From: Acidobacteriota bacterium
GTDB lineage: Bacteria > Acidobacteriota > Thermoanaerobaculia > Multivoradales > J023
Length of the DNA stretch: 54,125 bases
Assembly (NCBI GenBank): GCA_039184055.1
Contig: JBCDBH010000002.1
Coordinates: 1 to 54,125 of the forward strand
Direction of reading: 5' to 3'
This document shows positions 22,473 through 46,277 of the stretch, piece by piece (positions within the stretch are counted from its first letter, which is position 1; every line of letters begins with the position of its first letter). The notes under the pieces are model-generated. The model was not told the origin of the DNA and did no database searches. It worked only from the letters and a program-made list of their open reading frames with translations. The position numbers and the translations under genes are program-made.

Positions 22473-23976
22473 CGAACAGGCGCGGGTGCGCAAGACTTTA
22501 TTGGTCGAGGACGATCCGTTCGAAACCCGGGTTGCGTTGCTCGAGAACGATCGACTGGCCGAGATCTTCATCGAACGTCCCGATCGTCTGGGCTGGGTTG
22601 GCAACCTGTACAAAGGTCGGGTCAGTCGGGTCCTGCCCGGTATGCAGGCCGCCTTTGTCGATATCGGTCTCGAGCGCGACGCCTTTCTCTACGTCGGTGA
22701 GGTGGTCGACTCGTTGGCGACGGTCGAGGACGTCGAAGGAGCCGAGCCGCCATCGATCGGCGAGCTCTTGGTCCAAGGTCAGGAGCTGCTCGTTCAGGTG
22801 CTCAAAGACCCGCTGCCCAACAAAGGCGCGCGCGTCTCGACTCAGATCACCTTGCCGGGGCGTTATCTGGTGTTGCTCCCGGAGGTCGAGCAGCTCGGGA
22901 TCTCGCGGCGAATCGAAGACGACGCCGAGCGCGAACGGCTGCGTGGCGTGCTCGAAGCCATTCAACCACCAGGCTGCGGCTTGATCGTTCGCACCGCGGG
23001 GTTGGGGCAAGACGAGCCGGTGCTCCGCGGCGATCTAGTCGAGCTCGAGGCGCAGTGGCAACGGCTCCGTCAGCGTGCCGCCCAGTTGCGACCGCCGGCA
23101 TTGGTGCACCGCGATCTCGACTTGGCGGTGCGCGTGGTGCGCGACACCTTCAGCGACGACTTCGACACCGTCTGGGTCGAGGGTGACGAAGCGTACGAGA
23201 GCATCGTCGCCTTTCTTCACGCCACCGCTCCTTACCTGGCGCCACGCGTGCGGCGATGGGAAGAACCGACGCCACTCTTCGAGCATTACGCGATCGATCA
23301 AGAGCTCGACAAGGCGCTCGAGAGCCGAGTGTGGCTCAAATCGGGTGGCACGATCGTCATTCAGTCGACCGAGGCCTTGGTGGCGATCGATGTCAATACG
23401 GGCCGCTTCGTCGGTCGAGACAATCTCGAGGACACGGTGCTCGCCACCAATCTCGAGGCGGTGACCGAAATCGTGCATCAGCTCCGGCTACGCGACCTCG
23501 GCGGCATCGTGGTGATCGATTTCATCGATATGGCCGATGCCGACAATCGGGCTCGCGTGATGGCGGCGCTCGAAGCCGAGCTGGCTCGCGACCGCGCCAA
23601 GAGCAAAGTGCTGGCACTCTCAGAATTCGGGTTGGTTCAGCTGACCCGCAAACGAAGCCGTCAGAGTCTCGAACGGCAGCTCACCGCGCCGTGTCCGTAT
23701 TGCCGAGGCTCTGGCCGTGTCGCCAACGTCGAATCGATCGGTCTCGACATTCGGCGGCGGCTGGTCCGTGACCGCAGCCGCTATCGTCACGGCGCGCGAC
23801 TGGTGGTCCATCCCGATGTGGCTCGGTCGCTCGCCACCAGCCCGGTCGGATTGCTTGCCGAGCTCGAACGGCTGATCGACGCCGAGCTGATCGTCGATGA
23901 AAACGACACATTGCATCGTGAGCATTGGCAAATTGAGCCATTGACTCGTCGCGATTGGGGCGGTCCTCCGGCGTAA
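22456..23976 (+). CDS. rng: Rne/Rng family ribonuclease (RNase G)
   Basis: GNLYKGRVSRVLPGMQAAFVDIG, AIDVNTG, LRLRDLGGIVVIDFIDM, CPYCRGSG. Confidence 0.93.
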   Translation: MMHPADEQARVRKTLLVEDDPFETRVALLENDRLAEIFIERPDRLGWVGNLYKGRVSRVLPGMQAAFVDIGLERDAFLYVGEVVDSLATVEDVEGAEPPSIGELLVQGQELLVQVLKDPLPNKGARVSTQITLPGRYLVLLPEVEQLGISRRIEDDAERERLRGVLEAIQPPGCGLIVRTAGLGQDEPVLRGDLVELEAQWQRLRQRAAQLRPPALVHRDLDLAVRVVRDTFSDDFDTVWVEGDEAYESIVAFLHATAPYLAPRVRRWEEPTPLFEHYAIDQELDKALESRVWLKSGGTIVIQSTEALVAIDVNTGRFVGRDNLEDTVLATNLEAVTEIVHQLRLRDLGGIVVIDFIDMADADNRARVMAALEAELARDRAKSKVLALSEFGLVQLTRKRSRQSLERQLTAPCPYCRGSGRVANVESIGLDIRRRLVRDRSRYRHGARLVVHPDVARSLATSPVGLLAELERLIDAELIVDENDTLHREHWQIEPLTRRDWGGPPA

Positions 23977-24011
23977 GTGGCGAGCGATCTCGTATTTGGG
24001 CCTGTTTTGGG

Positions 24012-24032
24012 CAAAATCGTCAAGCGATTTTG
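24012..24032. promoter_or_regulatory. Inverted repeat, candidate operator or weak hairpin
   Basis: caaaatcg-N5-cgattttg between rng and the AraC-TPR gene. Confidence 0.35.
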
Positions 24033-24315
24033 TCGACAATTCGAATTTGGCGCTGTATTGTTTGGACACGGGGAAGTTGCCGGGCCTCGAATGCGTTCAT
24101 TCGCATCGGTCGTGTGCCCATAGTCGTGGACACCGACTGTGAGGCGCACCGTGTCGGCGGTAGATACGCTTTATCGCCGACACGTGACGCTAGGCTCGGC
24201 CCAATCTGAGTTTCGTAATCGGGATGGATGACGCGTACGTTCGGTGGCTCGAGCCACCACGATGCGTCGTACCCTGGTATCCGAAGCTCTTCGACAAGCG
24301 TAACGGGGAATTTGT

Positions 24316-26100
24316 ATGCTTGCGGGAAAGAGTCAGAGATTTCTTGAGACGGCTGCCGCCGACACACTGGCGCGGGTGAGACGAGATCGCGAGCGTGTGG
24401 GAGCGCGACTCAAGCCTCTCCTCGAACACATCGAGGCGAGCCTTTTCGATCCGGGTCTAGACGTCAATCAACTCAAACGCGCGTGTGGGGTCCGGGACAA
24501 TACGATCCCGATCCAATTCCACGCCGAGCTCGGCATGCCACCCCATGCCTACATCGAAGACTGTCGACTCAAGACCGCCTGTCGTCTTTTGTGCGACACC
24601 GATCTGAAGGTGTGGCAGATCGCCGATCTTCTTGGATATTCGAGTATTCAAGTCTTCAGCCGTGCCTTCAGCCGCTGGGCCGGGGTGCGTCCGACCGTGT
24701 ATCGCAAGCGCGAACGGCGGAACGAAGAAACGGCACCGTCACCTTTGCCCGAGGTGCCGACACTACGAGTCGAGACGTTGCGCCAAGCGCTTCGAGGGGA
24801 TCTCGACGCGGCCGGTGTCGAGTCGTTGATGCGTCGCTTGCTCGCCCTCTACCCGGCCTCGAGTCGCCGGATCGCGCTCGAAGCGTCGTCGTTGGCGGCG
24901 CGTGCCGAGAGTGTGCGACGGCCATCGCAACGTCATTCGCCGGTGCGCTCGAGTCTCGACAAAGAGCGCGTCGAGCGGGTGCGTGCCGAAGAGGTGTGGC
25001 GAGAGATGGAAGGTCGCTCGTGGGAAGAGCGGCGTGAGCTCGTGCGGCGTAAGCTCCGCTTCACTACCGCGGCGCTTTTCGAGCTCATTCACGATCAGGC
25101 GATCGAGATCGGGCGTCAGGATCGCCAAGAGGGTTTGCGTCTCGCCGAGTTGGCTCTGGAGAGCCTGGAGACGATCGACCCCGAAGCCGTCGATGCCGAG
25201 GACCGAGCCAATCTCGACGCTCGCGCGTGGGCTTGGTTGGGTAACGCACGCCGGATCGTGCTCGATTTCACCGGCGCTGAAGAGGCCTTGTCCGAGGCTG
25301 AACGTCGGCTTTCGGTACGTCGTCCCGACGTCATCGTGCAGGCCGACATTTTCAAGATCAAAGCGGCGCTCCGTTGGTTCCAGCGTCGTCTCCACGAAGC
25401 CATGGCCCTGATCAACGAGGCCATCGTGCTCTATCGCCGCGCCGACAAGAGCCACCTGCTCGGTCAGGCCATGGTGGTGCGCGCGCTGCTCCTGCTCTTG
25501 CAGGACAAGCCGGATGAGAGTCTGCCGGTGCTCGCACGTGCCATGGAGTTGATCGATCGCGAAAGCGAGCCTTGGGCGTTCCTCTCCGCGCATCAAGTTC
25601 TGATCGCCGCGTATACCTTCGCGGGTCGGTACGAGGACGCCGAATCGAGCTTGCTCGATGGCCATTCGATGGCGCGCGAGGTCGACAATCGTGACGCCGA
25701 GCTGCGGTTGCGCTGGCTCGAAGGGTTGGTGGCGCGTGAGAAGGGTTCGCTCGACCGGGCCGAGGATCATCTCAAGCCGGTCGTCGAGGAGCTGACCGCC
25801 GCGGAGCAGACCTACGACGCCGCGTTGGCATCGCTCGACTTGGCCTTGGTCTACTCGGCGCAGGGACGGGACAACGAAGTGATCGCGTTGGCGGGCGAGA
25901 TGATTCCGGTGTTCGGAGCCTTGCGGGTACACCGTGAGGGTATGGCCGCGCTCAACCTGATCCAGGCGGCGATCAAGAATCGCCAGATCACGATTGCGTC
26001 GCTGTGGGAAGCGCGTCGCCTGGTCGACCGCAGTCGCGGTCTGGCCATGCCGTGGGCGCTGCCCCTACGGGTTGCCGAGCAAGCGCGTCCAGCGGCTTGA
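24316..26100 (+). CDS. AraC-family HTH regulator fused to a C-terminal TPR-like domain
   Basis: AraC signature RLKTACRLLCDTDLKVWQIADLLGYSSIQVFSRAFSRWAGVRPTVYRK; helical repeats ARAWAWLGNARR, LRLRWLEGLV, YDAALASLDLALVY. Confidence 0.85.
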   Translation: MLAGKSQRFLETAAADTLARVRRDRERVGARLKPLLEHIEASLFDPGLDVNQLKRACGVRDNTIPIQFHAELGMPPHAYIEDCRLKTACRLLCDTDLKVWQIADLLGYSSIQVFSRAFSRWAGVRPTVYRKRERRNEETAPSPLPEVPTLRVETLRQALRGDLDAAGVESLMRRLLALYPASSRRIALEASSLAARAESVRRPSQRHSPVRSSLDKERVERVRAEEVWREMEGRSWEERRELVRRKLRFTTAALFELIHDQAIEIGRQDRQEGLRLAELALESLETIDPEAVDAEDRANLDARAWAWLGNARRIVLDFTGAEEALSEAERRLSVRRPDVIVQADIFKIKAALRWFQRRLHEAMALINEAIVLYRRADKSHLLGQAMVVRALLLLLQDKPDESLPVLARAMELIDRESEPWAFLSAHQVLIAAYTFAGRYEDAESSLLDGHSMAREVDNRDAELRLRWLEGLVAREKGSLDRAEDHLKPVVEELTAAEQTYDAALASLDLALVYSAQGRDNEVIALAGEMIPVFGALRVHREGMAALNLIQAAIKNRQITIASLWEARRLVDRSRGLAMPWALPLRVAEQARPAA

Positions 26101-26106
26101 TTCGGT

Positions 26107-26134
26107 TCGGACCGCCGTGTTCGCGGCGGTCCGA
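26107..26134. terminator. Hairpin between convergent regulator and peptide genes
   Basis: tcggaccgccg-tgttcg-cggcggtccga, 11-bp perfect stem. Confidence 0.7.
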
Positions 26135-26148
26135 TTCTCTCTCTCAGC

Positions 26149-26427
26149 TCAACCAACCGGATCGATGAATGGGCCCGAGGGCGGTGGTGGCGGCGTACAA
26201 GGCGTCGGCTGACAATCGCCTTGTCCGTTGAGAGGCTGAATCCACGGGGTCTCGTCGATCACCTGTGTGTCGTTCGGAACGAACCACTCCGTGATCGATT
26301 CGATCAGCTCCTGCCACCATGTGCCCCATGCTCCGATCTCGGCCGGGGGTGCCGCCAAAATGGGCGCCGTCAAGCAGCCGAGCAAGAGAATGAACGATAG
26401 GTAACGTGCCATAGGTTTGTCTTTCAT
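26149..26427 (-). CDS. Small secreted protein, putative signalling propeptide (92 aa)
   Basis: AAGGGAGA RBS 5 nt before ATG; Sec-type signal ending ...APILA; Trp-rich amphipathic segment; motifs TPWIQPLNG and C-terminal GPFIDPVG. Confidence 0.75.
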   Translation of the reverse strand: MKDKPMARYLSFILLLGCLTAPILAAPPAEIGAWGTWWQELIESITEWFVPNDTQVIDETPWIQPLNGQGDCQPTPCTPPPPPSGPFIDPVG

Positions 26428-26710
26428 CACGATCTCCCTTTGCGGATCGTCGCGCACCTGAATGACGAGCGACGTCCGTTCTCTCCACCAGCCTAGCGCG
26501 TGAAAGAGTAAATGCACAGTGATGAAGGTAATTCCCCTACGGAAGGTCGATGATGAGGCATGTGGGCATGCCAGAAGCTGTTGTCTATTCTGCATAAGGT
26601 GATGTGCATGCCTTCGGATCGGGTAGGTGTGCTGACATGAGTAACATACGATAATAGGTCATACACTCGTTTATTTTCTGGTATTTGATCCACTCAAGAT
26701 GAATCACCAT

Positions 26711-26735
26711 GAAAAAGGCACCGCTTTCGCGGTGC
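26711..26735 (-). terminator. Intrinsic terminator downstream of the type III PKS operon
   Basis: Minus strand GCACCGC-GAAA-GCGGTGC followed by CTTTTT. Confidence 0.65.
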
Positions 26736-26886
26736 ATCATGCGTTTCGCCACGAGGGCTAACTACCTAGATGCCTACTGAATCAGTGAAGGCTCCACGGA
26801 GTCAGTGACGACATCTGAGCAGTGAAATCATGTTATCAGCACATATCATGCTGATCAAGCATCAATAGAGCGCATTCGCGCTGACT

Positions 26887-28017
26887 TCACGCGGCCCAAA
26901 GAGCGCCAACCAGCTTTGGCGCCGTTCCAACAAGACTGTGTACGGGCCGCTCGGCTACATGTACCGCGAGGATGTGATCGAAGAGCCAGGGCTCGGCAGC
27001 CAGCGCGGCGATCAGGCGGCGTCGTAGCCATGGCCGTCGCTCGATCTGTAAGAGTACATGGGTCAACAGGTTGGGTCGTCTGGAGATCACACGATGGGCG
27101 TGTGAGTAGACCCGAAGATCACGTTCACCGATGGCTTCGGCGATTGCTTCCGCTTGGTGGAGGCCGATCGCCAAACCTTCGCCGGTGATCGCATCGACAT
27201 AGCCACTTGCGTCGCCCACCAAGGCGAGGTTTTTCGAGACCACGCCACGTGTGCGTTGGAGGAGCGGGCCGCTACCCCGATCTCGTGACGTCGCGGACGC
27301 ATCGCCGAGTCGCTCGAGAAGTCGTGGAAAACGTGCAAGGAGCGTAGGGAAATCGCTCTTGAAGCCGCTCCACAGAACCGCCACGCCGACCTCATCAGGA
27401 GCAATGGGGGTCACATAGGCTTCACAATCGCCTTGCCAATAGACCTCGACTCGGTCTGTCCATGGTGTGATGCGATAGTGGCGTCGGACTCCAAAACGTC
27501 GAACTCCAGACCGTCTTGCACGGGTCGTCGATCGCGCCGTCAGACCCACGGCTCGACGGAGGGGTGAGCGTAGACCATCGGCGGCAATCACGAAACGCGG
27601 CGTGAGAGCTCGGTCGGCAACTTCGAGACCCCAACCGCCGCCGGGCAGGGGTCGGGCCGTGACGGGATGCCCACGGTGAATCACCGCACCCAATGCGATC
27701 GCCCGTTCTTCGAGTGCGCGACCCAGCACGGTGCGACGTACACCCCGGCCGGCTCGCGATGGGAATCGGCCATCGGCGACGGTGGTGCCGTCGATCCAGC
27801 GGATCCCGGCGAAGGGCATCGAACGTGGTAGCTCCACGCCCCAGCTGTCGAGCCGTTCGACGGCATCGGGCATCAACCCTTCACCACAGGCTTTGTCGAT
27901 CGGCCCTCGGGGCTTTCGTTCGAAGACCGCTACCTCGATCCCACGTAGCCGCAGGGCGATGGCGGTGGCGAGACCCACCGGTCCCGCGCCGATCACCACG
28001 ACGTCGGGGTTCGTCAT
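26887..28017 (-). CDS. FAD-dependent oxidoreductase/monooxygenase (SrsC-like)
   Basis: VVVIGAGPVG, DKACGEGLMP, IAADGLRS, LVGDASGYVDAITGEG; ATGA overlap with FAAL. Confidence 0.88.
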   Translation of the reverse strand: MTNPDVVVIGAGPVGLATAIALRLRGIEVAVFERKPRGPIDKACGEGLMPDAVERLDSWGVELPRSMPFAGIRWIDGTTVADGRFPSRAGRGVRRTVLGRALEERAIALGAVIHRGHPVTARPLPGGGWGLEVADRALTPRFVIAADGLRSPLRRAVGLTARSTTRARRSGVRRFGVRRHYRITPWTDRVEVYWQGDCEAYVTPIAPDEVGVAVLWSGFKSDFPTLLARFPRLLERLGDASATSRDRGSGPLLQRTRGVVSKNLALVGDASGYVDAITGEGLAIGLHQAEAIAEAIGERDLRVYSHAHRVISRRPNLLTHVLLQIERRPWLRRRLIAALAAEPWLFDHILAVHVAERPVHSLVGTAPKLVGALWAA

Positions 28018-29780
28018 TCGCGACCTCGACCGAAGCGACTCACCCATGCCGAACGGGCCAGTTGGCTGGCGAGATAAAGAGGTGTGACCGCGGTCGGTGG
28101 CTCGAGCGAGCCGTCGAGATGCCGCTGCAAGGTCGTGGCGCGTCGCAGTTTGCCCGACGAGGTCCGAGGCAGGGTACCGGGAGCGAGCAGCCACACGTCG
28201 TCGGCTCGAAGTCCGGTTCGTGTCAGCACAGCTTCGCGGCACAGCGCCGGGAGCGCTTGGCGTGCTTCAGTCGAACTGTCGGCGCGGTATTCCACGAAAA
28301 GCCAGAGACGTTCGTGCTCGGCGTGTTCCGGGTGATGGCTCACCGCCACCACGCACCCACGCCGAACGCCCACCACTTCGTCGACCGCTTGTTCGATATC
28401 CGCCGGAGCGTGGTTGCGACCTCGCAAGATGATCACGTCTTTGGCGCGACCGGTGAGGAAGAGCCGGTTGTCCTGGTCGAGAAAGCCGAGGTCACCGGTA
28501 TCGAGCCAGCCGTCCCGCAGCACATCGGCGGTGGCGTCGGGACGATCGAAGTAACCACGCATCAGCGAAGGTCCACGCACCCACACATGACCGATACGTT
28601 CGGTGGCGAGAGTCCGCTGTTCAGCGTCACGGATCGCGACCAAGAACCCGGGTAGAGGTCGTCCGACCGACACCAGCTCGATGCCGTCGGAGCGGTGTTT
28701 GGCGATTCCGTGCCGACTCAGCGCCTCGCGATCGAAAGCGCGGCTCACGAACGGCGCATCGAGACGGTCGAACGTGACCGCCAAGGCCGCTTCGGAGAGT
28801 CCGTAGACAGGCGTGATCGCGTCCTCACGAAGACCATAGGGCGCAAAGCGACGGGTGAACCGTTTCAGAACAGCGGGCGAAATCGGCTCGGCACCGTTGA
28901 GAGCGACCTGCCAACCGCTCAGGTCGACTCCGTCGAGCTGATCGTCACGGATTCGATCGGCACACAGGCCGTAGGCGAAATTGGGTGCCACCGAGACCGT
29001 CGCGCGGCGTCGAGAGAGGGTGCGTAGCCAGATCGCGGGGCGCGCCACGAAGAGCTCGGGTGGAATGAGGGTCAGCTCGGAACCGGCGAAGAGCGCGGGC
29101 AGCACACAGCCGATCAGCCCCATGTCATGGTAGAGCGGCAGCCAAGAGACGCCGCTATGACGGGATCCGAGTGGTGGCGGAAAGCTACCGAGAATGACTT
29201 CGCCCTGACTCAGGAGCGCGCGATGTTCCAAGGCGACCGGTTTCGGGTCGACCGTCGTTCCCGAGGAGAATTGAATCAGGGCCAGATCGTCGGCCGATAC
29301 GGTCGTGGGCTCGAATGACTCGACGTTCGTAGGCAGCTCGTCGAGCCGGTGGAGGCCGAGCGGCACGCGAGCTCGTGCCATCGTTTCACCGAGTAGACGG
29401 CGGATACGTGGCGCGGCGAGCACCATTCGGCATCCGGCGGCGTCGAGCATGGTGGCGGTGCGCTTGTGGTACTCGTCGAGTCGGCCGAGTCGCACAGGTG
29501 GATAGAGCGGCACCGGTACGGCACCGAGCAAGACAACGCCGAAAAACGCTCGGAAAAAATCGGGTTCGGTGGCAAAGAGCAAAGCGACGCGGTCACCGGG
29601 CTCGACTCCTGACGCAACGAGTCTGGCGGCGATCGTCCGAGCTTCCCGTCGCAGGGTGAAGAAGTCGAGTGGGGTGTCGCGCTCGCGTCGATCGACGAAC
29701 CGCAGGCCGACATCGTCTCGGGGCGCGTCGCCCGCGGCGTGATCGAGCAAGGCGGCGAGCGTGGTCGGGGCGGTCGTCAT
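28014..29780 (-). CDS. Fatty acyl-AMP ligase (FAAL)
   Basis: LIQFSSGTTVDPK, SWLPLYHDMGLIG, APNFAY, NGAEPI, VYGLSEA, DTGDLG, LPRTSSGK. Confidence 0.9.
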   Translation of the reverse strand: MTTAPTTLAALLDHAAGDAPRDDVGLRFVDRRERDTPLDFFTLRREARTIAARLVASGVEPGDRVALLFATEPDFFRAFFGVVLLGAVPVPLYPPVRLGRLDEYHKRTATMLDAAGCRMVLAAPRIRRLLGETMARARVPLGLHRLDELPTNVESFEPTTVSADDLALIQFSSGTTVDPKPVALEHRALLSQGEVILGSFPPPLGSRHSGVSWLPLYHDMGLIGCVLPALFAGSELTLIPPELFVARPAIWLRTLSRRRATVSVAPNFAYGLCADRIRDDQLDGVDLSGWQVALNGAEPISPAVLKRFTRRFAPYGLREDAITPVYGLSEAALAVTFDRLDAPFVSRAFDREALSRHGIAKHRSDGIELVSVGRPLPGFLVAIRDAEQRTLATERIGHVWVRGPSLMRGYFDRPDATADVLRDGWLDTGDLGFLDQDNRLFLTGRAKDVIILRGRNHAPADIEQAVDEVVGVRRGCVVAVSHHPEHAEHERLWLFVEYRADSSTEARQALPALCREAVLTRTGLRADDVWLLAPGTLPRTSSGKLRRATTLQRHLDGSLEPPTAVTPLYLASQLARSAWVSRFGRGRE

Positions 29781-29784
29781 GACA

Positions 29785-30084
29785 TCAGGCCTGATCGAGT
29801 GCGGCGATCTTGGCCTCGATCAGAGCGACCAGATCACCGACCGTGTCGATGTGAGCTTCGTCATCCTCATCGAGGCAGATTCGGTAGTGATCCTCGACCG
29901 CCACCGCCAGGCTCAGGAGCTGGAGCGAGTCGAGAGCGAGATCTTCGACCAGCCGTTTGTCGCTCGTCACCGTCCCCTCGTAGTCCAGGTTCTCACGCGC
30001 GATCGTCGTGATGGTGTCGAGGATCGATGCCATGGAGGGTCCGCCGTTCTCTGCTTCGTCGCTGCTCATATCGTCGTCGCTCAC
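29785..30084 (-). CDS. Acyl carrier protein
   Basis: LVEDLALDSLQLLSL phosphopantetheine motif; TVGDLV; start could be 30084, 30069 or 30033. Confidence 0.88.
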   Translation of the reverse strand: MSDDDMSSDEAENGGPSMASILDTITTIARENLDYEGTVTSDKRLVEDLALDSLQLLSLAVAVEDHYRICLDEDDEAHIDTVGDLVALIEAKIAALDQA

Positions 30085-30656
30085 TCCGGCGTGTTCCCGG
30101 TGGGAAACGACGGCACGCCTGTCATCACCCGCTGCCAATCGGCGTACTCGCGCAGCGCGGCCTCCTCGACGCGGATTCTCGCTCGCAGCACGAGAAGGTT
30201 GAGTGAGCCGTACACCAACGCGGTCCACCAGGCTGTGTGAATCAGCGGCAGAGCAATGACTTCGATGATCACGGCCACGTAGTTCGGATGACGAAAGAAC
30301 TGGTAGGGACCCCGTCGGATCGCGGTTTCACCTGGAACCACCACCACGGTGGTCGTCCACCGCTCACCGAGGCTGACGATCGCCCAATAGCGCAGCATCA
30401 TGCTGAGCCCGACCAAGGCGAGCGCGGGCCAGCCGAGCCAAGGGAGAAACGGGCGATCGAACCACCACGCTTCGAGCGGGGCGACGGCGAGCAGCGAGGC
30501 ATGGAGCGCCACCATGAACGGATAGTGCCGTTGTCCGAGGATCTTGCCGCCACGGGCGAGGAGCTTGCGCGTATGTCGGCGCGTCAGCACCAGCTCGAGC
30601 AGACGCTCGATCACCACCAGCCCGATGATCACGAGAAATCCGGTGAACGTCGACAT
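30081..30656 (-). CDS. Isoprenylcysteine carboxyl methyltransferase family protein (SrsB-like O-methyltransferase)
   Basis: ERLLEL, HYPFMVALH, LGERWTT, GPYQFFRHPNYVAV, RIRVEE. Confidence 0.9.
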   Translation of the reverse strand: MSTFTGFLVIIGLVVIERLLELVLTRRHTRKLLARGGKILGQRHYPFMVALHASLLAVAPLEAWWFDRPFLPWLGWPALALVGLSMMLRYWAIVSLGERWTTTVVVVPGETAIRRGPYQFFRHPNYVAVIIEVIALPLIHTAWWTALVYGSLNLLVLRARIRVEEAALREYADWQRVMTGVPSFPTGNTPE

Positions 30657-31714
30657 CAGAAACGCAGCAGGACCAGCTCCGAGCAAAAACCCGGGCCCAT
30701 GGCCATCATCAATGCCCGATCACCCGCCGCCGGGGGTGATTCGAGAACCTCTTCGAGTACCAAGAGCACCGAGGTCGACGACAGATTGCCGACTTCGCGC
30801 AGGCTTCGCCAGGTCGGCTCGAGCGCGTCGTCGGGTAGCGCGAGGGTCGTGGCCATCGCTTCGAGCACTTTCGGGCCGCCAGGATGGGCGATCCAGCGGC
30901 TGATGTCGTCTCGGGTGAGCCCGTGGGCGCCGAGGAAGGTGTCGACGTCACGGCCGAGGTGCTCGGTCACCATCTTGGGGACGTCGGCGGACAAGACGAT
31001 GCCAAAACCTCGCTCCGAGATTTTCCAGCCCATGACGTCTTCGGTGTCGGGATAGAAAACCGAGCGGGTGTCCACCACGCGTGGGCATGGCCGGCTGCTT
31101 GCGCACGCCGCTCCACGTACGACCACTGCCGCCGCACCGTCACCGAAGAGACCCGAAGCGATCAGATTGGCGACCGACAGATCTTCTCGTTGCAAGGTGA
31201 GCGAACAGAGTTCCACCGAGAGCAGCACCGCAGTGTGCTCGGGGAACGCGCGAACATAGTCGGCCGCGCGCGCGATCCCGGCCGCGCCCGCGACACAGCC
31301 CAGGCCAAAGAGAGGGGTTCGTTTGATCCGTGGTGGGAGCCCGAGATCGTTGACCAGCCGAGCGTCGAGTGACGGTGTGGCGAGTCCGGTGACGGTGGTC
31401 GAGAAGATCGCGTCGACTTGGGATGCATCGAGCTCCGCGATGTCGAGAGCCTTGCGCAGCGCTTCTCCACCGACTCGCCGCGCGACGCGAATCCACGCGT
31501 CATTCGCTTCGCCCCAGGTGGTCAGCTCGTCGTAGGCGTCGATCGGCAAAGCCAGATGGCGACCACCCACCAGGACGTTGCGGTGCAAGCGCTCGAGACG
31601 ATCTGTGTTGTGATGTTCCCGACCCCAGACTTGTTTGAAAGCCTCGAGCAAGGTCTCTTGGTCGTAGTAGTGATCCGGAAAGGCGTGACCTACCGCGGTG
31701 ATCTGCACGCTCAA
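30656..31714 (-). CDS. Type III polyketide synthase (SrsA/FtpA-like)
   Basis: Catalytic Cys GLGCVAG, His AHPGG, Asn GNLSS; LFGDGAAA; MGPGF. Confidence 0.95.
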   Translation of the reverse strand: MSVQITAVGHAFPDHYYDQETLLEAFKQVWGREHHNTDRLERLHRNVLVGGRHLALPIDAYDELTTWGEANDAWIRVARRVGGEALRKALDIAELDASQVDAIFSTTVTGLATPSLDARLVNDLGLPPRIKRTPLFGLGCVAGAAGIARAADYVRAFPEHTAVLLSVELCSLTLQREDLSVANLIASGLFGDGAAAVVVRGAACASSRPCPRVVDTRSVFYPDTEDVMGWKISERGFGIVLSADVPKMVTEHLGRDVDTFLGAHGLTRDDISRWIAHPGGPKVLEAMATTLALPDDALEPTWRSLREVGNLSSTSVLLVLEEVLESPPAAGDRALMMAMGPGFCSELVLLRF

Positions 31715-32400
31715 TCGTCCGTCGGATCGTCGTCGTCGGAGTCGTCGTGGCCAGTAGAGCGGGTGACGCGTGAGGTCGTGGCGGGGGTCGGCGTCGACAC
31801 GGTCGGTGCCGGTGGCACGTTGTCGTAGCGCCTCCCGTCGTCGTCCCCTTCGTCGCTGTTCTCGTCTTCCCCGGCCTCGTCTTCATCGTGCGTGTCGATC
31901 GTCAGCTCGGATGGTGTGCTCGCCATCGCGTCGTCGAGATGCGAATCGGGAGGCGTCGTGATCGACGTCGCGGCCACGGTCGCCGCGCTCGCGGTTGCGC
32001 GTTTCGTCATTGGCCGGCCGAGCATCGCCAACACCAAGCCGCAGGCGGTGTAGAGACCGAACCAACCGAGGGCAAGCTGCCACCAGGGCTCGTGTGGCTG
32101 TCGCGCGGCGAGCACGATGGTGATGACCAGGAGCGGGCCTCGGAAGATCCAGGCGATCCAGCCGGTCACCAAACCGTCCAGCCACCACGTGCCACTGCGA
32201 CCCTGAAGGAGGAGAAAGAGTGCGATCAGACCGACCGCTTCGAGTAGCCAGCTACCGATGACGATCTGGCCATCGATCGGGGCGCCGAGACGAGGAATCG
32301 TGCCCGTTTCGACATCCAAGCCGCTCAGATCGACCACAAAGCCGAAAAAAGCGAAGAGCAGAAGGAGGATGGGAAACGCCAGGGCGAGAAAACGAATCAC
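31711..32400 (-). CDS. Hypothetical integral membrane protein with acidic disordered tail
   Basis: About four hydrophobic segments then a Thr/Asp/Glu-rich tail; 4-nt overlap with the PKS gene. Confidence 0.65.
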   Translation of the reverse strand: MIRFLALAFPILLLLFAFFGFVVDLSGLDVETGTIPRLGAPIDGQIVIGSWLLEAVGLIALFLLLQGRSGTWWLDGLVTGWIAWIFRGPLLVITIVLAARQPHEPWWQLALGWFGLYTACGLVLAMLGRPMTKRATASAATVAATSITTPPDSHLDDAMASTPSELTIDTHDEDEAGEDENSDEGDDDGRRYDNVPPAPTVSTPTPATTSRVTRSTGHDDSDDDDPTDD

Positions 32401-32416
32401 CCGGCGATGCTACCAG

Positions 32417-33799
32417 TTACTCGCCAGCGGAATCGATGCCGTCGAGTACCGGTGTACCCGTGGCCATGGGATCGAGCCAGTCGCGCAAGCGCGTATCGGG
32501 AGTCGGACCGTCCCAAGCCGCCGACAGCCGGCCGAACCAATCGGGCTCATCGGCGCCACACGCCGCCCAGCCGCCGTGCAGCTGGCCGATCACCCGGTGA
32601 TGCTCATCGAAGAGCGGCGCACCCGAGGAGCCTCCTTCGGTCGTGCCCAGGTCCCAGCTCGCGACCCGTAGATGGCTGCCATCGCCGGGGACGTCGTCAC
32701 CCAGATGACTGGTCGGCACCGCGCCCACGGAGCTGTAGGCGATCCGCTTGGCGTCGGTATTCGGGTGGTGAATCACCGTCGCTTCCGCGACGGCTCGATG
32801 CCGTCGATCCCATCCCGCGTAATACACCCGATGGCGGGCTTTCGGGATGTCATCGAGCTCGAGAAGAGCGAAATCCGTGTCGTCGTGCCCGGCCAGCCAC
32901 CGCGCGCCCGTTTGGAATCGGCGCAGATCACCAGCCTGGTACGAGCTGGCGCCGCGTCGACATACCCGGCTTTGGTGTCCCCAGAACACCACCACCGAAG
33001 CCGCATTGGTTTCGTCGATACCGCAATGCTTCGCGGTCAAGAAAAGCGGCCGTCCATCCTCAGCGGTGTTGTTGAGCAAGAAGCCGGTGCAGAAATGCCT
33101 GCCCGCCACCGACACCAACGCGACCGCGCGTGCCTCGTTGCGCCAGTCCGCGGCGGGAGGGCACGTCACATCGACGTTGCAGGCGCCCGAGCGTGGCTGG
33201 GGCTCACCGAATCCAGCATAGCCGTGGTTGATCCAGCTCAACTCGAGATCGTAGCGGCGTAGCTTGTTCGCCGGCAACGTGAGCTCGACGATCAGATCGT
33301 CGGTCGGCAGAGGTGGTGTCCACAGCTCACCGTGGGTTTCGTTGTCACGAGCGGTAAAGGGGCCGACCACCTGTCCTCGGCCGGTCGTGGCATAAATCCG
33401 CAACGTGCCACCCTTGGGCATGCGGTAGCGCGAAAACCCCAGATTGAGCGAGTAGGCGTCACGCGAGATCAACCGCAGTCGCCAGACCCACGAGCCATCG
33501 TCGCGTTGTTCCCACGTACCGTGACTCGAGGGCGTGATCCGTACCGCATGAGGCACCGCATAGCGCGCGGTTTGTCCCGCCTCGGTCGCCTCGAAATCCT
33601 GTCGCTTGGCGACCTCCTCGTCGACCCGTGGCAGCACCACCCGCTCGATCACCTCGACACCGAGCAACTTGGCGTCCAGACGCACTGGATCCGCCGCGAT
33701 GGCGGGCATCGCGACAAAAACAATCAGGAGGGCGAGGAGAAAATGACGGCTCACGGTCGCTAGGTACGGCTCGGGAGTTTCAGAGTTGAGGCGACGCAC
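32417..33799 (-). CDS. Secreted trypsin-like serine protease, lysyl endopeptidase family
   Basis: Signal and propeptide; CNVDVTC, FLTAKHC (His), DTDFALLEL (Asp), TEGGSSGAPLF (Ser), GQLHGG, LRDWLDP. Confidence 0.85.
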   Translation of the reverse strand: MRRLNSETPEPYLATVSRHFLLALLIVFVAMPAIAADPVRLDAKLLGVEVIERVVLPRVDEEVAKRQDFEATEAGQTARYAVPHAVRITPSSHGTWEQRDDGSWVWRLRLISRDAYSLNLGFSRYRMPKGGTLRIYATTGRGQVVGPFTARDNETHGELWTPPLPTDDLIVELTLPANKLRRYDLELSWINHGYAGFGEPQPRSGACNVDVTCPPAADWRNEARAVALVSVAGRHFCTGFLLNNTAEDGRPLFLTAKHCGIDETNAASVVVFWGHQSRVCRRGASSYQAGDLRRFQTGARWLAGHDDTDFALLELDDIPKARHRVYYAGWDRRHRAVAEATVIHHPNTDAKRIAYSSVGAVPTSHLGDDVPGDGSHLRVASWDLGTTEGGSSGAPLFDEHHRVIGQLHGGWAACGADEPDWFGRLSAAWDGPTPDTRLRDWLDPMATGTPVLDGIDSAGE

Positions 33800-42425: not shown

Positions 42426-45400
42426 ATGGGTTTGTTGGACTCGTACGTCTTTAAAGGCAATGAACGTTTCGAGGTGCAAGGCCACCTCGGTAGCGGTACC
42501 TCGGGCGATGTGTTCCGAGTCTTCGATCGCAAACGGCAGGCGGTTGTGGCGCTCAAGACGCTGCACAAGAGCGATCCGTCGGCGGTCATGCGATTCAAGA
42601 CCGAGTTTCGCGCCCTGACCGACGTCAACCATCCCAACCTGGTCCAGCTCTACGAGTTGCTCGCTGACGGTGATCGCTGGTACTTCACGATGGAGCTGGT
42701 CGAAGGGCTCGACTTCATCGACTATGTGCGTGCTCAACCGGCGGTCGGCGCCTACGAAACCGCGCGCTTTTATTCGATCCCCACACCCGTTGGCCCACCC
42801 GAGCCGGCGCGGCTTCGCATGGCGTTGCGACAATTGGCCGAGGGGCTCTTCGCGCTACACCGGGCGGGCAAGCTCCACTGCGACATCAAGCCATCGAATA
42901 TTCGCGTCACGCCCGATGGCCGTGTCGTGCTGCTCGACTTCGGGTTGGTCAAGGAGCTCTATGCCGGCCCCGCGGTGTACGAGACGATGGAAGGCGACAT
43001 CACCGGTACGCCCGCCTACATGTCACCCGAGCAGGCGGCGGGGCGGGAGATGACCGAGGCGAGCGACTGGTACAGCGTCGGTGTCGTGCTCTATGAAGCG
43101 CTGACCGGTCGCATTCCGTTCCGCGGTGGGTTCTTGCGGATTCTCACCGACAAACAGCGGAGCGATCCCGAGCCTCCGACGGCGGTCGCCAAGGAGGTAC
43201 CGGGCGATCTGTCCGAGCTCACCATGAGGCTGATGGCGCGGTCGGTCGACGAGCGTCTCACCGGGGTCAAGGCCTTGCGTGGTCTCGGTGCCGAGCCACC
43301 GGCTCCGTTCGACCGCATGGCCACGTCCACCCACTCGAGCAGCACCAGCGCGCCGTTCGTCGGGCGTCACCAGCAGCTCAACGTTCTGCTCGATGCGTTC
43401 GAATCAACCCGTACGGGTCGCACCGCGGTGGTCTTCGTTCACGGCAGCTCGGGTATGGGCAAGAGTGCCCTGGTGCGTCATTTCGTTCGCCAATTGAGTC
43501 AAGCGCACGACGAAGCCGTGCTGCTCACCGGTCGCTGTTACGAACGTGAGTCGGTGCCGTACAAGGCGCTCGATGCCTTGATCGATGCCCTGACGCGCTA
43601 TTTGCGCAAGCTCGAGGAGCGACAGGTCGAAGTGCTCCTGCCGACCAACGTCTTGGCGTTGGCGCGGCTCTTTCCATCTCTGCGGCGCGTTCCGGCCGTA
43701 TCAGGTTCCGAACGTCGTGTGCTCGAGATTCCCGATTCGCGCGAGCAGCGACGTCGGGCGTTTGGCGCTTTGCGTGAGCTGCTCGGTCGGCTCGCCGCGC
43801 GTGTGCCGCTGATCCTGTGGATCGATGATCTGCAATGGGGTGATCGTGACAGTGCCGCCTTGCTATCCGAGCTGTTGCGGCCACCCGATGCACCACCGCT
43901 TTTGCTCATCACCTGTTATCGCGCCGAGGAACGCGAGACGAGTCCGTTGCTCGCCAGCCTGCTCGCCGAGCGCTTCGACGATGGCGGGGCGAGCACCCTG
44001 GTGCGTGAGGTCGATCTACAAGAGTTGACGCCACCCGAGGCCGAACACCTCGCGCTCGCCCTGCTCGGCGAGGAGTCTCCAGTGGGGCGCTCGTTGGCCA
44101 AGGCCATCGGCGCCGAATCGGGTGGCAGTCCGTTCTTTATCGACGAGCTCGTGCGTTGGGCCAAGGCTGAAGCCGGATTGGACCAGGCCGGGGAGCGCAC
44201 CCTGTCGGCCGAGGTCGAGCGCGCGGTCCGGCAGCGGATGACCCTCGACAATCTCATTCAAGGTCGACTCGATCGTCTACCGTCCGAAGCACGGCGTTTG
44301 CTCACCGCGGTGGCCGTGGCGGGTCGCCCGGTCGACCTCGAAGCGGTGCGCAGTGCCGCCGAGCTCGGCAGCGAGGTCCAGGCGGCGATCGCCGCGTTGC
44401 GCGGCGCGAGCCTGGTGCGGATGCGCAGTCTTCGTGATCGCGAAGAAATCGAGCCGTACCACGATCGAATCCGCGAAACCGTGGTGCGAGGTCTCGAAGC
44501 TGAGGCGCTCGCGCACGTGCATCGTCGTTTGGCGCGTGCCCTCGAAGCCACCCGTCATGCCGATCCTGAAACCCTCGCCACCCATTATCTGGCCGCTGGG
44601 GAGCGGCAGCGGGCCGCCGAGCTGGCGGTGACCGCTGGCGACCAAGCCGCCGAGGCTCTGGCGTTCGACCGCGCGGCTCGGCTGTATCGGATCGCTCTCG
44701 ATCTCGAAGCTCACGAGCGGGACGCCCGCCGCGAGATCGAGGTCAAGCTCGGCAATGCTCTGGTCAACGCCGGTCGGGGTGCCGAGGCGGCACCGGTCTA
44801 CCTCGCCGCCGCCGAAGGCGCGCGAGCTGGCGACGCGCTCGAATGGCGTCGTCGCGCCGCCGAGCAATGGTTGATCAGTGGTCATATCGACGGCGGCATC
44901 GAGACCGTCAACACCGTTCTCTCCTTGGTCGGTATGGAGCTTCCGCCGACGCCACGGCGCACCATCTTCGCGCTCGCTGGCTTGCTCATCCGTCTCAAGT
45001 TGCGGGGGATCGATTTCGAAGAACGCGACGCCACCCAAATCGCCGCCGAGGAGCTGATCCGGATCGACACCTGCTGGTCGGTCGCGATCGGTCTCGGTTT
45101 GGTGGACACCATTCGTGGCATGGTGTTCGGCAAACGAAATCTGCTCTTGGCGCTCGAAGCCGGTGAACCGTACCGCGTGGCCCGTGCCCTCGCGATCGAG
45201 GCCGCCTATACCTCGACGGGTGGCACCAAGACCGCTGGACGTACCGAGCAGCTGGTGCGGGCATCGATGGCGCTCGCCGAGAGAGTCGGTCACCCACACG
45301 CGCTCGGTCTCGCCAACATGACCGCCGGTATGGCGGCCTATCTCGGCGGTCAGTGGAAAAAGGCGTGCGAGCTTCTCGAACGCGCCGAAGCGATCCTGCG

Positions 45401-46277
45401 TGAACGCTGCACCGGCGTCACCTGGGAGATCGACACTGCGATGTCCTTCCAGATGCGCTCGCTTCTGTTGATCGGTGACCTCGCCGAGATCAAGAAACGT
45501 CTGCCGCGCTTTCTCAAGGACGTCGCCGACAAAGGTGATCTCTACGCCGAAACCAATCTGCGTAGCCGGGCGTCATGGATGGCCATGTTGATCGAAGACC
45601 ATCACGAAGACGCCTTGGCCGAGGTCAGCGCGGCCCTCGAAGGCTGGTCCCAAGAGGGCTTTCATCTTCAACACTATTGGCGCATGACGGGAATCATCGA
45701 GATCGCGCTTTATCGAGGTGATGCGGTCGCCGCCTGGGCGCAGATCGAAGAAGACTGGCCGAAGATGGAGCGCTCGCTTTTCCTGCGGATTCAATTCACC
45801 CGTCACGAAGCCTACTTCCTTCGCGGTCGCGCCGCCCTCGCGGCGGCGGTCATCGCTGATGACGCCAAAGAGCGTGATGAGCGTTTGTCCGTGGTCGACG
45901 AAGAAATCAAACGACTGAAAAAAGAAAAGCTCTTTTGGGCCGAGCCGCTCGCTCTTTTGCTTACCGCCGGCGCGCTCACAGTGCGAGGCAAAGATGGCGC
46001 CACGGCTGTGCTCGCCGATGCCGCATCAGGCCTGGCCGCGGCCGACATGGAGCTCTACGCGACCGTCGCTCGTCGGCGTCGAGGACAGCTCCTCGGTGAT
46101 GGTCAGGGGCACCGATTGATACGTGAGTCGGACGAGTGGATGGTGAACCATGGCGTCGTCGTGCCCGAGCGGATGGCCGATGTCGTCGCGCCTGGAGTGT
46201 GGAGTAGCCCGGATGGCTCACCAGCCCGCCGTGACGACGGACCGCGGCTGCAGCGTGGAAACGCACGCAATCTCTAG
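42426..46277 (+). CDS. Hanks Ser/Thr kinase fused to P-loop NTPase (STAND-like) and helical repeats
   Basis: LGSGTSG, VALK, HCDIKPSN, DFGL, GTPAYMSPEQ; Walker A GSSGMGKS; Walker B WIDDLQW; GGSPFF; HDRIRE. Confidence 0.9.
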   Translation: MGLLDSYVFKGNERFEVQGHLGSGTSGDVFRVFDRKRQAVVALKTLHKSDPSAVMRFKTEFRALTDVNHPNLVQLYELLADGDRWYFTMELVEGLDFIDYVRAQPAVGAYETARFYSIPTPVGPPEPARLRMALRQLAEGLFALHRAGKLHCDIKPSNIRVTPDGRVVLLDFGLVKELYAGPAVYETMEGDITGTPAYMSPEQAAGREMTEASDWYSVGVVLYEALTGRIPFRGGFLRILTDKQRSDPEPPTAVAKEVPGDLSELTMRLMARSVDERLTGVKALRGLGAEPPAPFDRMATSTHSSSTSAPFVGRHQQLNVLLDAFESTRTGRTAVVFVHGSSGMGKSALVRHFVRQLSQAHDEAVLLTGRCYERESVPYKALDALIDALTRYLRKLEERQVEVLLPTNVLALARLFPSLRRVPAVSGSERRVLEIPDSREQRRRAFGALRELLGRLAARVPLILWIDDLQWGDRDSAALLSELLRPPDAPPLLLITCYRAEERETSPLLASLLAERFDDGGASTLVREVDLQELTPPEAEHLALALLGEESPVGRSLAKAIGAESGGSPFFIDELVRWAKAEAGLDQAGERTLSAEVERAVRQRMTLDNLIQGRLDRLPSEARRLLTAVAVAGRPVDLEAVRSAAELGSEVQAAIAALRGASLVRMRSLRDREEIEPYHDRIRETVVRGLEAEALAHVHRRLARALEATRHADPETLATHYLAAGERQRAAELAVTAGDQAAEALAFDRAARLYRIALDLEAHERDARREIEVKLGNALVNAGRGAEAAPVYLAAAEGARAGDALEWRRRAAEQWLISGHIDGGIETVNTVLSLVGMELPPTPRRTIFALAGLLIRLKLRGIDFEERDATQIAAEELIRIDTCWSVAIGLGLVDTIRGMVFGKRNLLLALEAGEPYRVARALAIEAAYTSTGGTKTAGRTEQLVRASMALAERVGHPHALGLANMTAGMAAYLGGQWKKACELLERAEAILRERCTGVTWEIDTAMSFQMRSLLLIGDLAEIKKRLPRFLKDVADKGDLYAETNLRSRASWMAMLIEDHHEDALAEVSAALEGWSQEGFHLQHYWRMTGIIEIALYRGDAVAAWAQIEEDWPKMERSLFLRIQFTRHEAYFLRGRAALAAAVIADDAKERDERLSVVDEEIKRLKKEKLFWAEPLALLLTAGALTVRGKDGATAVLADAASGLAAADMELYATVARRRRGQLLGDGQGHRLIRESDEWMVNHGVVVPERMADVVAPGVWSSPDGSPARRDDGPRLQRGNARNL

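Follow-up and report, generated by a model that had tools for sequence, protein, structure and literature searches.

A candidate RRNPP-like peptide–receptor pair in a diderm bacterium of the class Thermoanaerobaculia

Introduction

Quorum sensing in Gram-negative bacteria has mostly been described through small molecules. RRNPP systems work with encoded peptides, which differ between subfamilies and include leaderless peptides exported by other routes. Passages of PMC10075063, the RRNPP_detector paper, and of PMC12700828, a structural phylogeny from 2025, present signalling by encoded peptides through a cytoplasmic receptor as belonging to Gram-positive Bacillota and their mobile elements, and describe the RRNPP family from Bacillota, their conjugative elements and their phages. 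Part of PMC12700828 states that an outgroup to root the RRNPPA tree is still needed, and a part of PMC11343458 describes tandem duplications within RRNPPA pheromone propeptides. Here we describe a pair of convergent genes in a 54,125-nt stretch of DNA (the window; contig JBCDBH010000002.1, positions 1 to 54,125) from a bacterium of the class Thermoanaerobaculia (Acidobacteriota). One gene encodes a 594-aa protein with an N-terminal AraC-type DNA-binding domain and a C-terminal tetratricopeptide repeat (TPR) superhelix; the other encodes a 92-aa product that ends in GPFIDPVG. We give a probability of roughly 0.6 to the reading that the two genes form a cognate peptide–receptor module, which would work like an RRNPP system in a diderm phylum.

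The window is contig 2 of a 624-contig, 6.2-Mb assembly that is 88.6% complete. Its host class is described as diderm, mostly uncultured and found in soil and marine settings, and a diderm envelope fits the LptF/LptG and outer-membrane beta-barrel genes seen in related loci. A sequence-only reading of the window had already proposed an RRNPP-like system in a Gram-negative lineage. Our search found no literature joining 'RRNPP' with 'Acidobacteriota' or 'Acidobacteria', with subscription journals and supplements outside its reach; among the matches listed for 'RRNPP-like', all concern Bacillota, and those for 'Thermoanaerobaculia' together with 'quorum sensing' were, judged from the listing, passing mentions.

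Results

An AraC-TPR receptor gene faces a small gene with the build of a propeptide gene

The receptor gene occupies 24316..26100 on the plus strand. The ATG at 24316 agrees with the conserved N-terminus of its relatives, and one public gene call gives 574 aa, 20 fewer. The sequence-only reading had described an AraC domain followed by a TPR-like region, and both parts were borne out. Residues 60–132 (24493..24711, plus strand) match Pfam HTH_18 with an E-value of 3.1e-18, above the cut-off, and an AlphaFold2 model built on an alignment of 45 relatives (mean predicted local distance difference test score, pLDDT, 89.8) comprises the helix-turn-helix (HTH) region, a helical linker (152–198) and an unbroken TPR superhelix over residues 216–574 (24961..26037, plus strand). 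Pfam TPR_12 scored 28.1 bits, under its 30.1 cut-off. Because NCBIfam AraC-family models align with their C-terminal, DNA-binding ends at receptor residues of about 26–137, the DNA-binding head is N-terminal in the receptor; this is the end that the earlier reading had called unusual, and relatives have the domain there as well. Neither a signal peptide nor a membrane segment was seen when reading the 594-aa sequence, and we read the receptor as cytoplasmic. Each of the 23 genomes from the same family encodes full-length AraC-TPR relatives (35–46% identity), frequently many of them.

The window's own genome also holds many paralogues of the AraC head (contigs C116, C6, C13, C42, C285, C43 and C9; 35–50% identity over residues ~7–143). 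They lie in frames of 173–362 aa, with the long TPR part absent or split off. Two further AraC-head paralogues adjoin xDPxG peptide genes (contigs C302 and C385).

Convergent with the receptor gene and 48 bp past its stop lies the small gene (26149..26427, minus strand), and public gene calls contain an identical 92-aa product. A terminator-like hairpin for the receptor gene separates the two genes (26107..26134; 12 pairs, 9 of them G-C, with a T-rich tail and a perfect 11-nt inverted repeat), as had been noted from the sequence. The ribosome-binding site, signal peptide and C-terminal motif first read in the small gene were recovered, the signal peptide by heuristic only. A Shine-Dalgarno sequence, GGGAG, stands 6 nt 5' of the ATG (26434..26438, minus strand). 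Approximately residues 1–26 (26350..26427, minus strand) form a signal-peptide-like N-terminus by our own heuristic (hydrophobic window 2.76, three K/R ahead of it); an LLLGC within it could alternatively be a lipobox. Residues 31–49 (26281..26337, minus strand) read as a Trp-rich segment resembling an amphipathic helix, and similar W-rich segments occur in relatives' precursors. A Pro-rich tail follows, and the product ends in SGPFIDPVG. The last eight residues, GPFIDPVG (26152..26175, minus strand), are the candidate mature signal; they are followed immediately by the stop codon, and relatives share the motif. This gene pair and its anatomy are established. Two cysteines, C72 and C77, directly precede the Pro-rich tail.

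A hexamer resembling a -10 element, TAGGCT, lies 68 nt upstream of the peptide ATG (26490..26495, minus strand). Of 26 regions upstream of AraC-type peptide genes (loci L098–L156), 9 contain TA[AG]GCT, compared to 1.8% of control windows, and 8 of its 10 occurrences fell 65–78 nt before the peptide start, the remaining two at 50 and 105 nt. It was nearly absent from the zinc-finger-type modules described below (1 of 43 upstream regions). This distribution suggests a class-specific promoter of AraC-type peptide genes.

Small genes with an xDPxG motif are enriched beside AraC-TPR receptors

The pairing was counted at the 55 receptors for which 300 bp or more was available downstream, using the motif [ILVMFWY][DE]PxG and a reach of 450 bp; regions downstream of 1398 long open reading frames (ORFs) in the window's own genome supplied the background. 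The motif was present within that reach on the convergent strand downstream of 29 of 55 AraC-TPR receptors, compared to 85 of 1398 background regions (~6%). At the same loci it was found on the same strand downstream in 2 of 55 cases, and upstream in 2 of 57 and 3 of 57. With a stop codon directly after it, the motif was present at 18 of 55 receptors and in 3 of 1398 background regions, one of which is the window's own. An enrichment of small xDPxG ORFs beside TPR homologues is what the sequence-only reading had anticipated, and the conserved pairing and motif are thereby a matter of observation.

Likeness between the window's peptide and the convergent small ORFs behind relatives is limited to this motif, at or near the C-terminus. 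Examples of endings are RIDPEG-stop, LMIDPIG, LIDPSG, GIDPVG-stop and three repeats of SGIFIDPYG. The wider consensus is G-P-x-(I/L/V)-D-P-x-G, to which GPFIDPVG conforms. Codons within the motif vary synonymously (ATC/ATT/ATA, GAT/GAC, CCG/CCA/CCT/CCC, GGC/GGT/GGG/GGA); the conservation therefore acts at the protein level and not on a DNA element, and protein-level selection on the motif is established. Sites of AGGAG/GGAG type and an ATG start were present in nearly all partner peptide ORFs.

The scan for partner ORFs also covered 40 further paralogous loci. A stricter detector, which needed a ribosome-binding site and placed the motif at most 20 aa from the stop, gave a partner at 26 of 58 AraC-type receptors. 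Among the 30 receptors left partnerless by this detector, 3 had truncated flanks and about 8 had convergent small ORFs with variant endings (ADPLG, INPNG, LDLLG, TPDPDG). One subfamily of peptides is 19 aa long, starts MK-x-KT, has a central (R/K)AG and ends in xDPxG or variants, with no export signal evident (loci L134, L139, L148, L116, L124, L135, L141, L142 and L150); L148 carries three tandem copies.

These counts bear on the possibility that the 92-aa ORF is open by chance between genes and stands beside the receptor gene by coincidence. Such a frame would be consistent with a third-position G+C content (GC3) of 0.68–0.70, modest in this genome, with the failure to find a sequence homologue among 1.84 billion representatives, and with the lack of a public RNA run containing the stretch. 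A chance frame would not be expected to recur as a motif enriched at the same relative position beside relatives, with negative controls, nor to have synonymous codon variation inside the motif and recurrent Shine-Dalgarno sites; the co-fold and the covariation at predicted contacts, given below, speak against it as well. We regard a chance ORF as very improbable.

Two results on the 92-aa product's own likenesses stand beside this. In the phmmer search, a 998-aa cadherin-like repeat protein was matched and judged spurious as a homologue, its score being the sum of 8 repeats; no paralogue of the 92-aa product was found in its own genome. In the ESM Atlas, the closest clusters were unnamed proteins of 87–93 aa from Acidobacteriota and Candidatus Aminicenantota, with scores of 0.88–0.89, below the bar of 0.9. 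Similar peptides may thus exist in a second phylum, a lead at sub-threshold scores.

The same TPR domain carries other heads

A search with residues 190–594 found 71 proteins, most of them of ~440–460 aa with an N-terminal H-x3-C-x2-C motif. This head is of the zinc anti-sigma kind, with a weak zf-HC2 match, and is the majority form of the TPR family; some other relatives, of ~495 aa, carry an XRE-type HTH. A genome scan for the TPR domain turned up 343 stretches that encode it, and we retained the 80 best loci. The genomes in which the relatives occur were assembled from metagenomes and bear the label Thermoanaerobaculia or Acidobacteriota. Of 401 genomes sampled from the phylum, 15 matched the family profile strongly, all of them of the same class; no strong match was found in the others of that sample.

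Zinc-finger-type receptors have their partner on the other side. The partner gene lay immediately upstream and on the same strand at 42 of 89 zinc-finger(ZAS-like)-TPR receptors, where ZAS denotes zinc anti-sigma, and a downstream-only scan of these loci gave almost no partner genes. The whole-locus detector returned 54 small ORFs in 660 kb of zinc-finger-type loci, compared to 58 in the 6.2-Mb genome of the window. Signal-peptide-like N-termini were present in 40 of 45 of these partner peptides, and at least two motif copies in 25 of 45; a typical precursor consists of a signal peptide, a Trp-rich amphipathic helix and repeats of (K/D)EG-x-S-IDP(N/D)G.

At an E-value of 1e-70, all 7 genomes of one family proved to encode XRE-TPR receptors, and the 294 other genomes sampled from the class gave none. 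A convergent precursor was present at 20 of 30 XRE-TPR loci, which overlap, so that 14 distinct peptide genes were counted. These precursors (L165–L194) carry 2–5 repeats of a Cys-flanked motif, C-x-(I/L)DPxG-x-C, behind signal-peptide-like N-termini. The flanking cysteines hint at disulfide-closed loops that would form after export. The case is accordingly broader than the sequence-only reading, which had addressed the AraC form: XRE-headed and anti-sigma-like-headed TPR proteins have the same kind of peptide neighbour, and the peptide-gene link tracks the TPR domain rather than the AraC head.

Further arrangements occur in the window's own genome. A TPR protein has a convergent signal-peptide partner on contig C98, and separate AraC and TPR genes flank a peptide gene on contig C385. 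On contig C302 a peptide gene is divergent from an AraC gene interrupted by the contig end, and on contig C173 one is divergent from a 145-aa ORF that is followed by a 411-aa TPR protein. Contig C222 (6701-7222, locus L157) holds three tandem genes for leaderless peptides of 30 aa, divergent from an 89-aa XRE HTH gene. These peptides have a Trp-rich hydrophobic N-terminus and end in VDPNG or VDPHG, and each gene is preceded by AGGAGG; several short unannotated ORFs follow the HTH gene.

In 16 Pfam-annotated zinc-finger-type loci the genes past the pair vary; the exception is an extracytoplasmic function (ECF) sigma gene that overlaps the receptor gene in 2 of the 16. In L018 and L027, ECF sigma genes overlap the starts of zinc-finger-TPR genes, and two TPR paralogues have a second sigma gene and a peptide gene between them. 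The arrangement suggests peptide-controlled sigma/anti-sigma pairs.

The precursors could also be those of secreted bioactive peptides, bacteriocin-like or modified, with xDPxG as a processing or modification site and the TPR proteins as regulators or scaffolds. Several core-like repeats within single precursors are in keeping with this; so is the Trp-rich amphipathic helix, which in our reading of the sequence recalls membrane-active peptides, and one family member has a weak NCBIfam match, far below the cut-off (E 1.2e-7), to a TPR protein of cyclophane synthesis, a pathway of ribosomally synthesised and post-translationally modified peptides (RiPPs). Set against these points is the gene content: no maturase, radical-SAM (S-adenosylmethionine) enzyme, peptidase-ABC exporter or immunity-like gene was conserved at the 16 sampled loci and the window, no maturase or dedicated exporter was found conserved at five own-genome loci either, and the conserved unit is limited to the peptide and the TPR protein. 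The TPR proteins, moreover, bear transcription-factor or anti-sigma-like heads, and the predicted contact (below) is made by the conserved motif itself. We consider this explanation improbable.

The conserved C-terminal motif is predicted to bind the TPR groove

Residues 215–580 of the TPR domain (45-row alignment) were co-folded with residues 58–92 of the peptide in three runs alongside three controls. The interface score ipSAE was 0.76, 0.75 and 0.77 for the pair and 0.02, 0.02 and 0.00 for the controls. In the calibration of this score, 58 of 80 solved complexes attained the mark, as did 2 of 110 mismatched pairs; the counts are a rough guide, since our own alignment was used. The runs had at least 50% of their contacts in common. 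On the peptide side, confident contacts were confined to P83 and G85–G92, within the GPFIDPVG end. On the receptor side they include the best-conserved groove positions of the family, N310, R464, W467 and D508, all part of the predicted peptide-binding groove, and the invariant R313 is adjacent. GPFIDPVG is thus predicted to occupy the TPR groove of the 594-aa receptor, the placement that the sequence-only reading had proposed for co-folding. Since many TPR–peptide complexes have been solved, likeness to known complexes may account for some of the score.

Covariation was measured as mutual information between receptor columns and the variable peptide residues in 94 pairs from all three classes; the other receptor columns served to control internally for shared ancestry. 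For residue x of DPxG, the top three receptor columns (388, 384 and 348) are all predicted contacts; contacts make up 7 of the top 20, compared to 1.9 expected, and contact columns rank higher overall (Mann-Whitney p 0.001). The residue before D gave column 460, a contact, as its best column, with 5 contacts among the top 20 (p 0.04); for example, where the peptide has M before D, position 460 of its receptor is W or S and position 461 is T. For the second residue before D, contact columns were not enriched (p 0.62), though its best column, 391, is a contact.

Both analyses support binding and are silent on where it takes place. They would equally suit a partner switch inside the cell, in which the TPR domain binds the xDPxG tail of an unexported partner and senses it with no re-import and no cell–cell signalling. 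In keeping with such a switch, 22 of 28 AraC-type partner peptides have no signal-peptide-like N-terminus, many being 19–22 aa long, and on contig C385 of the window's own genome a peptide gene is flanked by an AraC gene and an unfused TPR gene. A switch of this kind fits poorly with the signal-peptide-like N-termini of the window's peptide, of 40 of 45 zinc-finger-class partners and of the precursors at 20 of 30 XRE-class loci, since such partners would be removed from a cytoplasmic receptor. Two to four tandem motif copies with variable linkers better fit the release of several small peptides, and the Cys-flanked XRE-class motifs suggest folding in an oxidising compartment. An intracellular switch is in our view unlikely, if still a serious alternative.

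The receptor fold is that of peptide-binding TPR proteins

Foldseek ranked LGN/Pins first (E 7e-7), with Rap proteins next. VIA-align, run on Foldseek's candidates, gave Z 24.4 (313 aligned residues, root-mean-square deviation 4.5) against the Rap of phage phi3T with its pheromone, followed by RapJ-PhrC (24.0), LGN (24.0), APPBP2 (23.7), RapF-PhrF (23.4), NprR (22.4 and 21.9), MalT domain III (19.2) and AimR (18.5); the top Z values tie within the resolution of the tool. With the sequence profile of the family, E-values ran from 1e-24 to 1e-12 for designed TPRs, Pins and kinesin light chains, and RapJ followed at 4e-7. The TPR domain, as modelled, has the architecture of peptide-binding TPR receptors, those of RRNPP systems among them.

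Neighbouring genes and transcription units

The genes upstream of the pair are mreB, a PBP2-type transpeptidase gene, rodA and the gene for RNase G (rng; Pfam RNase_E_G, 6e-99). On the other side, a minus-strand operon (26887-33799) encodes a trypsin-like protease, an unknown ORF, a type III polyketide synthase (PKS) with chalcone/stilbene synthase domains, an ICMT-type methyltransferase, a fatty-acyl-AMP ligase and a flavin adenine dinucleotide (FAD) monooxygenase. With its PKS, methyltransferase and flavoprotein hydroxylase, this operon resembles srs-type alkylresorcinol/alkylquinone (phenolic lipid) operons. G+C content is 0.55–0.57 at 23900–24350 and 0.48–0.55 at 26300–26900, compared to ~0.62–0.69 in most of the surrounding coding sequence. 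The G+C profile and the Pfam neighbours agree with the sequence-only reading, which had placed the pair between rng and a biosynthetic operon in a block with lower-GC flanks.

A terminator-like hairpin lies 3' of the FAD-monooxygenase gene (26718..26735, minus strand; 7 pairs, 6 of them G-C, followed by a T run), identified by match to the consensus. If it ends that gene, the peptide gene would be a separate transcription unit, and flanked by two hairpins it appears to be one. An Rfam search of 23900–27000 matched no RNA family up to E 1, and repeats within 26100–26900 were just short two-copy ones.

The sequence-only reading had also suggested that the pair might control the neighbouring PKS or protease genes, and this we dropped. 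Neither rng nor the FAD gene occurred within the 1.5-kb flanks of any of 19 related loci, and regulation of the type III PKS operon is therefore without comparative support. Elsewhere in the window (42426-46277, plus strand), a 1283-aa protein carries a Ser/Thr protein kinase domain at its N-terminus and, behind it, an AAA_16 (STAND-like) ATPase domain.

Discussion

A working model

In the mechanism that we propose, the 92-aa product would be exported via its N-terminal signal sequence and then cleaved, which would release from its C-terminus a short peptide that includes GPFIDPVG. The mature peptide would re-enter the cytoplasm and bind the concave groove of the receptor's TPR superhelix, and its binding would alter the activity of the N-terminal AraC domain. 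The promoter of the peptide gene itself is a likely target of the AraC head; autoregulation of this kind is a guess. We infer export, cleavage, outer-membrane passage and re-import from the build of the pair and its relatives. Tandem motif copies in precursors suggest cleavage, and the window's own genome encodes four SBP_bac_5 (Opp/Dpp-type) binding proteins, which are permissive for import only.

We place the window's pair in a family that spans the class Thermoanaerobaculia, with one TPR sensor and, as outputs, an AraC HTH, an XRE HTH or a zinc anti-sigma-like domain. That this is a large, old receptor family, each member with its own xDPxG pheromone feeding one of three outputs, and the first RRNPP-type cell–cell signalling in diderms, we would put at even odds.

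Evidence that tempers the reading

Several points weigh against the reading of the pair as an RRNPP-like module. The co-fold reports model confidence only, and the partner's pLDDT is low (47–51), so its own fold in the complex is uncertain. The covariation analysis handles kinship solely by column-to-column comparison, and the pairing counts overstate independence, the genomes being kin. Between roughly one third and one half of the receptors had no partner that we detected. Where AraC-type partners were found, just 6 of 28 look Sec-exported and most are leaderless peptides of 17–50 aa; export is therefore no general property of the AraC-type subclass. The signal-peptide call for the 92-aa product is based on a crude, self-made hydrophobicity heuristic. 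Its membership of the family is based on a short motif, its position and its general build, and phmmer against 1.84 billion representatives matched, besides the spurious repeat protein, just the product itself. The public sequencing runs with this stretch include no RNA run; one DNA run is a marine metagenome, perhaps the sample of origin. Peptide passage through the outer membrane in both directions is assumed. In fold, LGN, APPBP2 and other peptide-binding TPR proteins match as well as Rap does (Z within 1). Because of these Z ties, and because the profiles match generic TPRs first, homology to RRNPP receptors is not established.

The RRNPP-like system first proposed for this Gram-negative lineage is supported by the conserved pairing, the predicted binding and the covariation; its signalling steps are the part that we infer. 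If the family reading is true, Thermoanaerobaculia either invented the system independently or harbour the outgroup of the Bacillota RRNPPA family that has long been sought, and the family is a candidate outgroup for that tree. A peptide–receptor family in a diderm class would carry the mechanism over the divide between monoderms and diderms, would show one sensor domain put to use with AraC, XRE and anti-sigma outputs alike, and would raise the question of how short peptides cross the outer membrane both ways. Since a short motif is shared, the hypothesis is cheap to test with synthetic peptides, and the motif is a search key for more systems.

Comparison with known systems

AraC/XylS regulators usually have the sensor or dimerisation domain first and the HTH last. 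The receptor resembles them in its HTH_18 domain, which aligns with the DNA-binding ends of many AraC-family models, and differs in having that domain N-terminal and, as sensor, a C-terminal TPR superhelix. In type III secretion, TPR class II chaperones co-activate AraC regulators after cargo exit (IpgC-MxiE, SicA-InvF). There, too, an AraC-type activator answers to a TPR module whose ligand is a short peptide segment of a secreted protein; here TPR and AraC are fused, secretion-system genes are not nearby, and the partners are tiny, with a family-wide motif.

The majority TPR form among the relatives recalls ECF sigma/ZAS pairs through its H-x3-C-x2-C motif and its overlap with an upstream ECF sigma gene (2 of 16 loci). 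Unlike those pairs, it is soluble and combines a large TPR sensor with a peptide gene; the window's protein is not of this form. LGN/Pins, the top Foldseek matches (tied at Z 24.0), bind extended peptides in an inner groove. They are eukaryotic scaffold proteins, and what is shared is the repeat architecture, with no evidence of functional kinship. In RiPP gene clusters a maturase or exporter accompanies the precursor, a neighbour not conserved here (16 loci, five own-genome loci and the window), although distant maturases are possible.

The differences from RRNPP systems are the diderm host, an Acidobacteriota class; the AraC and anti-sigma-like outputs beside XRE, the AraC-type HTH and the zinc anti-sigma-like head not being among the outputs described in the parts of PMC10075063 and PMC12700828 that treat them; a single motif, G-P-x-hydrophobic-D-P-x-G, that spans the whole receptor family; and an ancestry that is unproven. 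The likenesses to RRNPP/RRNPPA systems (Rap-Phr, NprR-NprX, PlcR-PapR, PrgX, AimR-AimP, Rgg/ComR) begin with the gene order, a TPR-type receptor gene beside a small propeptide gene. The active part is, or here would be, at or near the propeptide C-terminus, Sec-type and leaderless propeptides both occur, and some propeptides carry tandem copies of the mature peptide, as a part of PMC11343458 describes. Pheromone-bound Rap, NprR and AimR are among the best structural matches of the window's receptor. In both cases the sensor is joined to an HTH or a protein-binding head, and Rap resembles the anti-sigma-like form found here.

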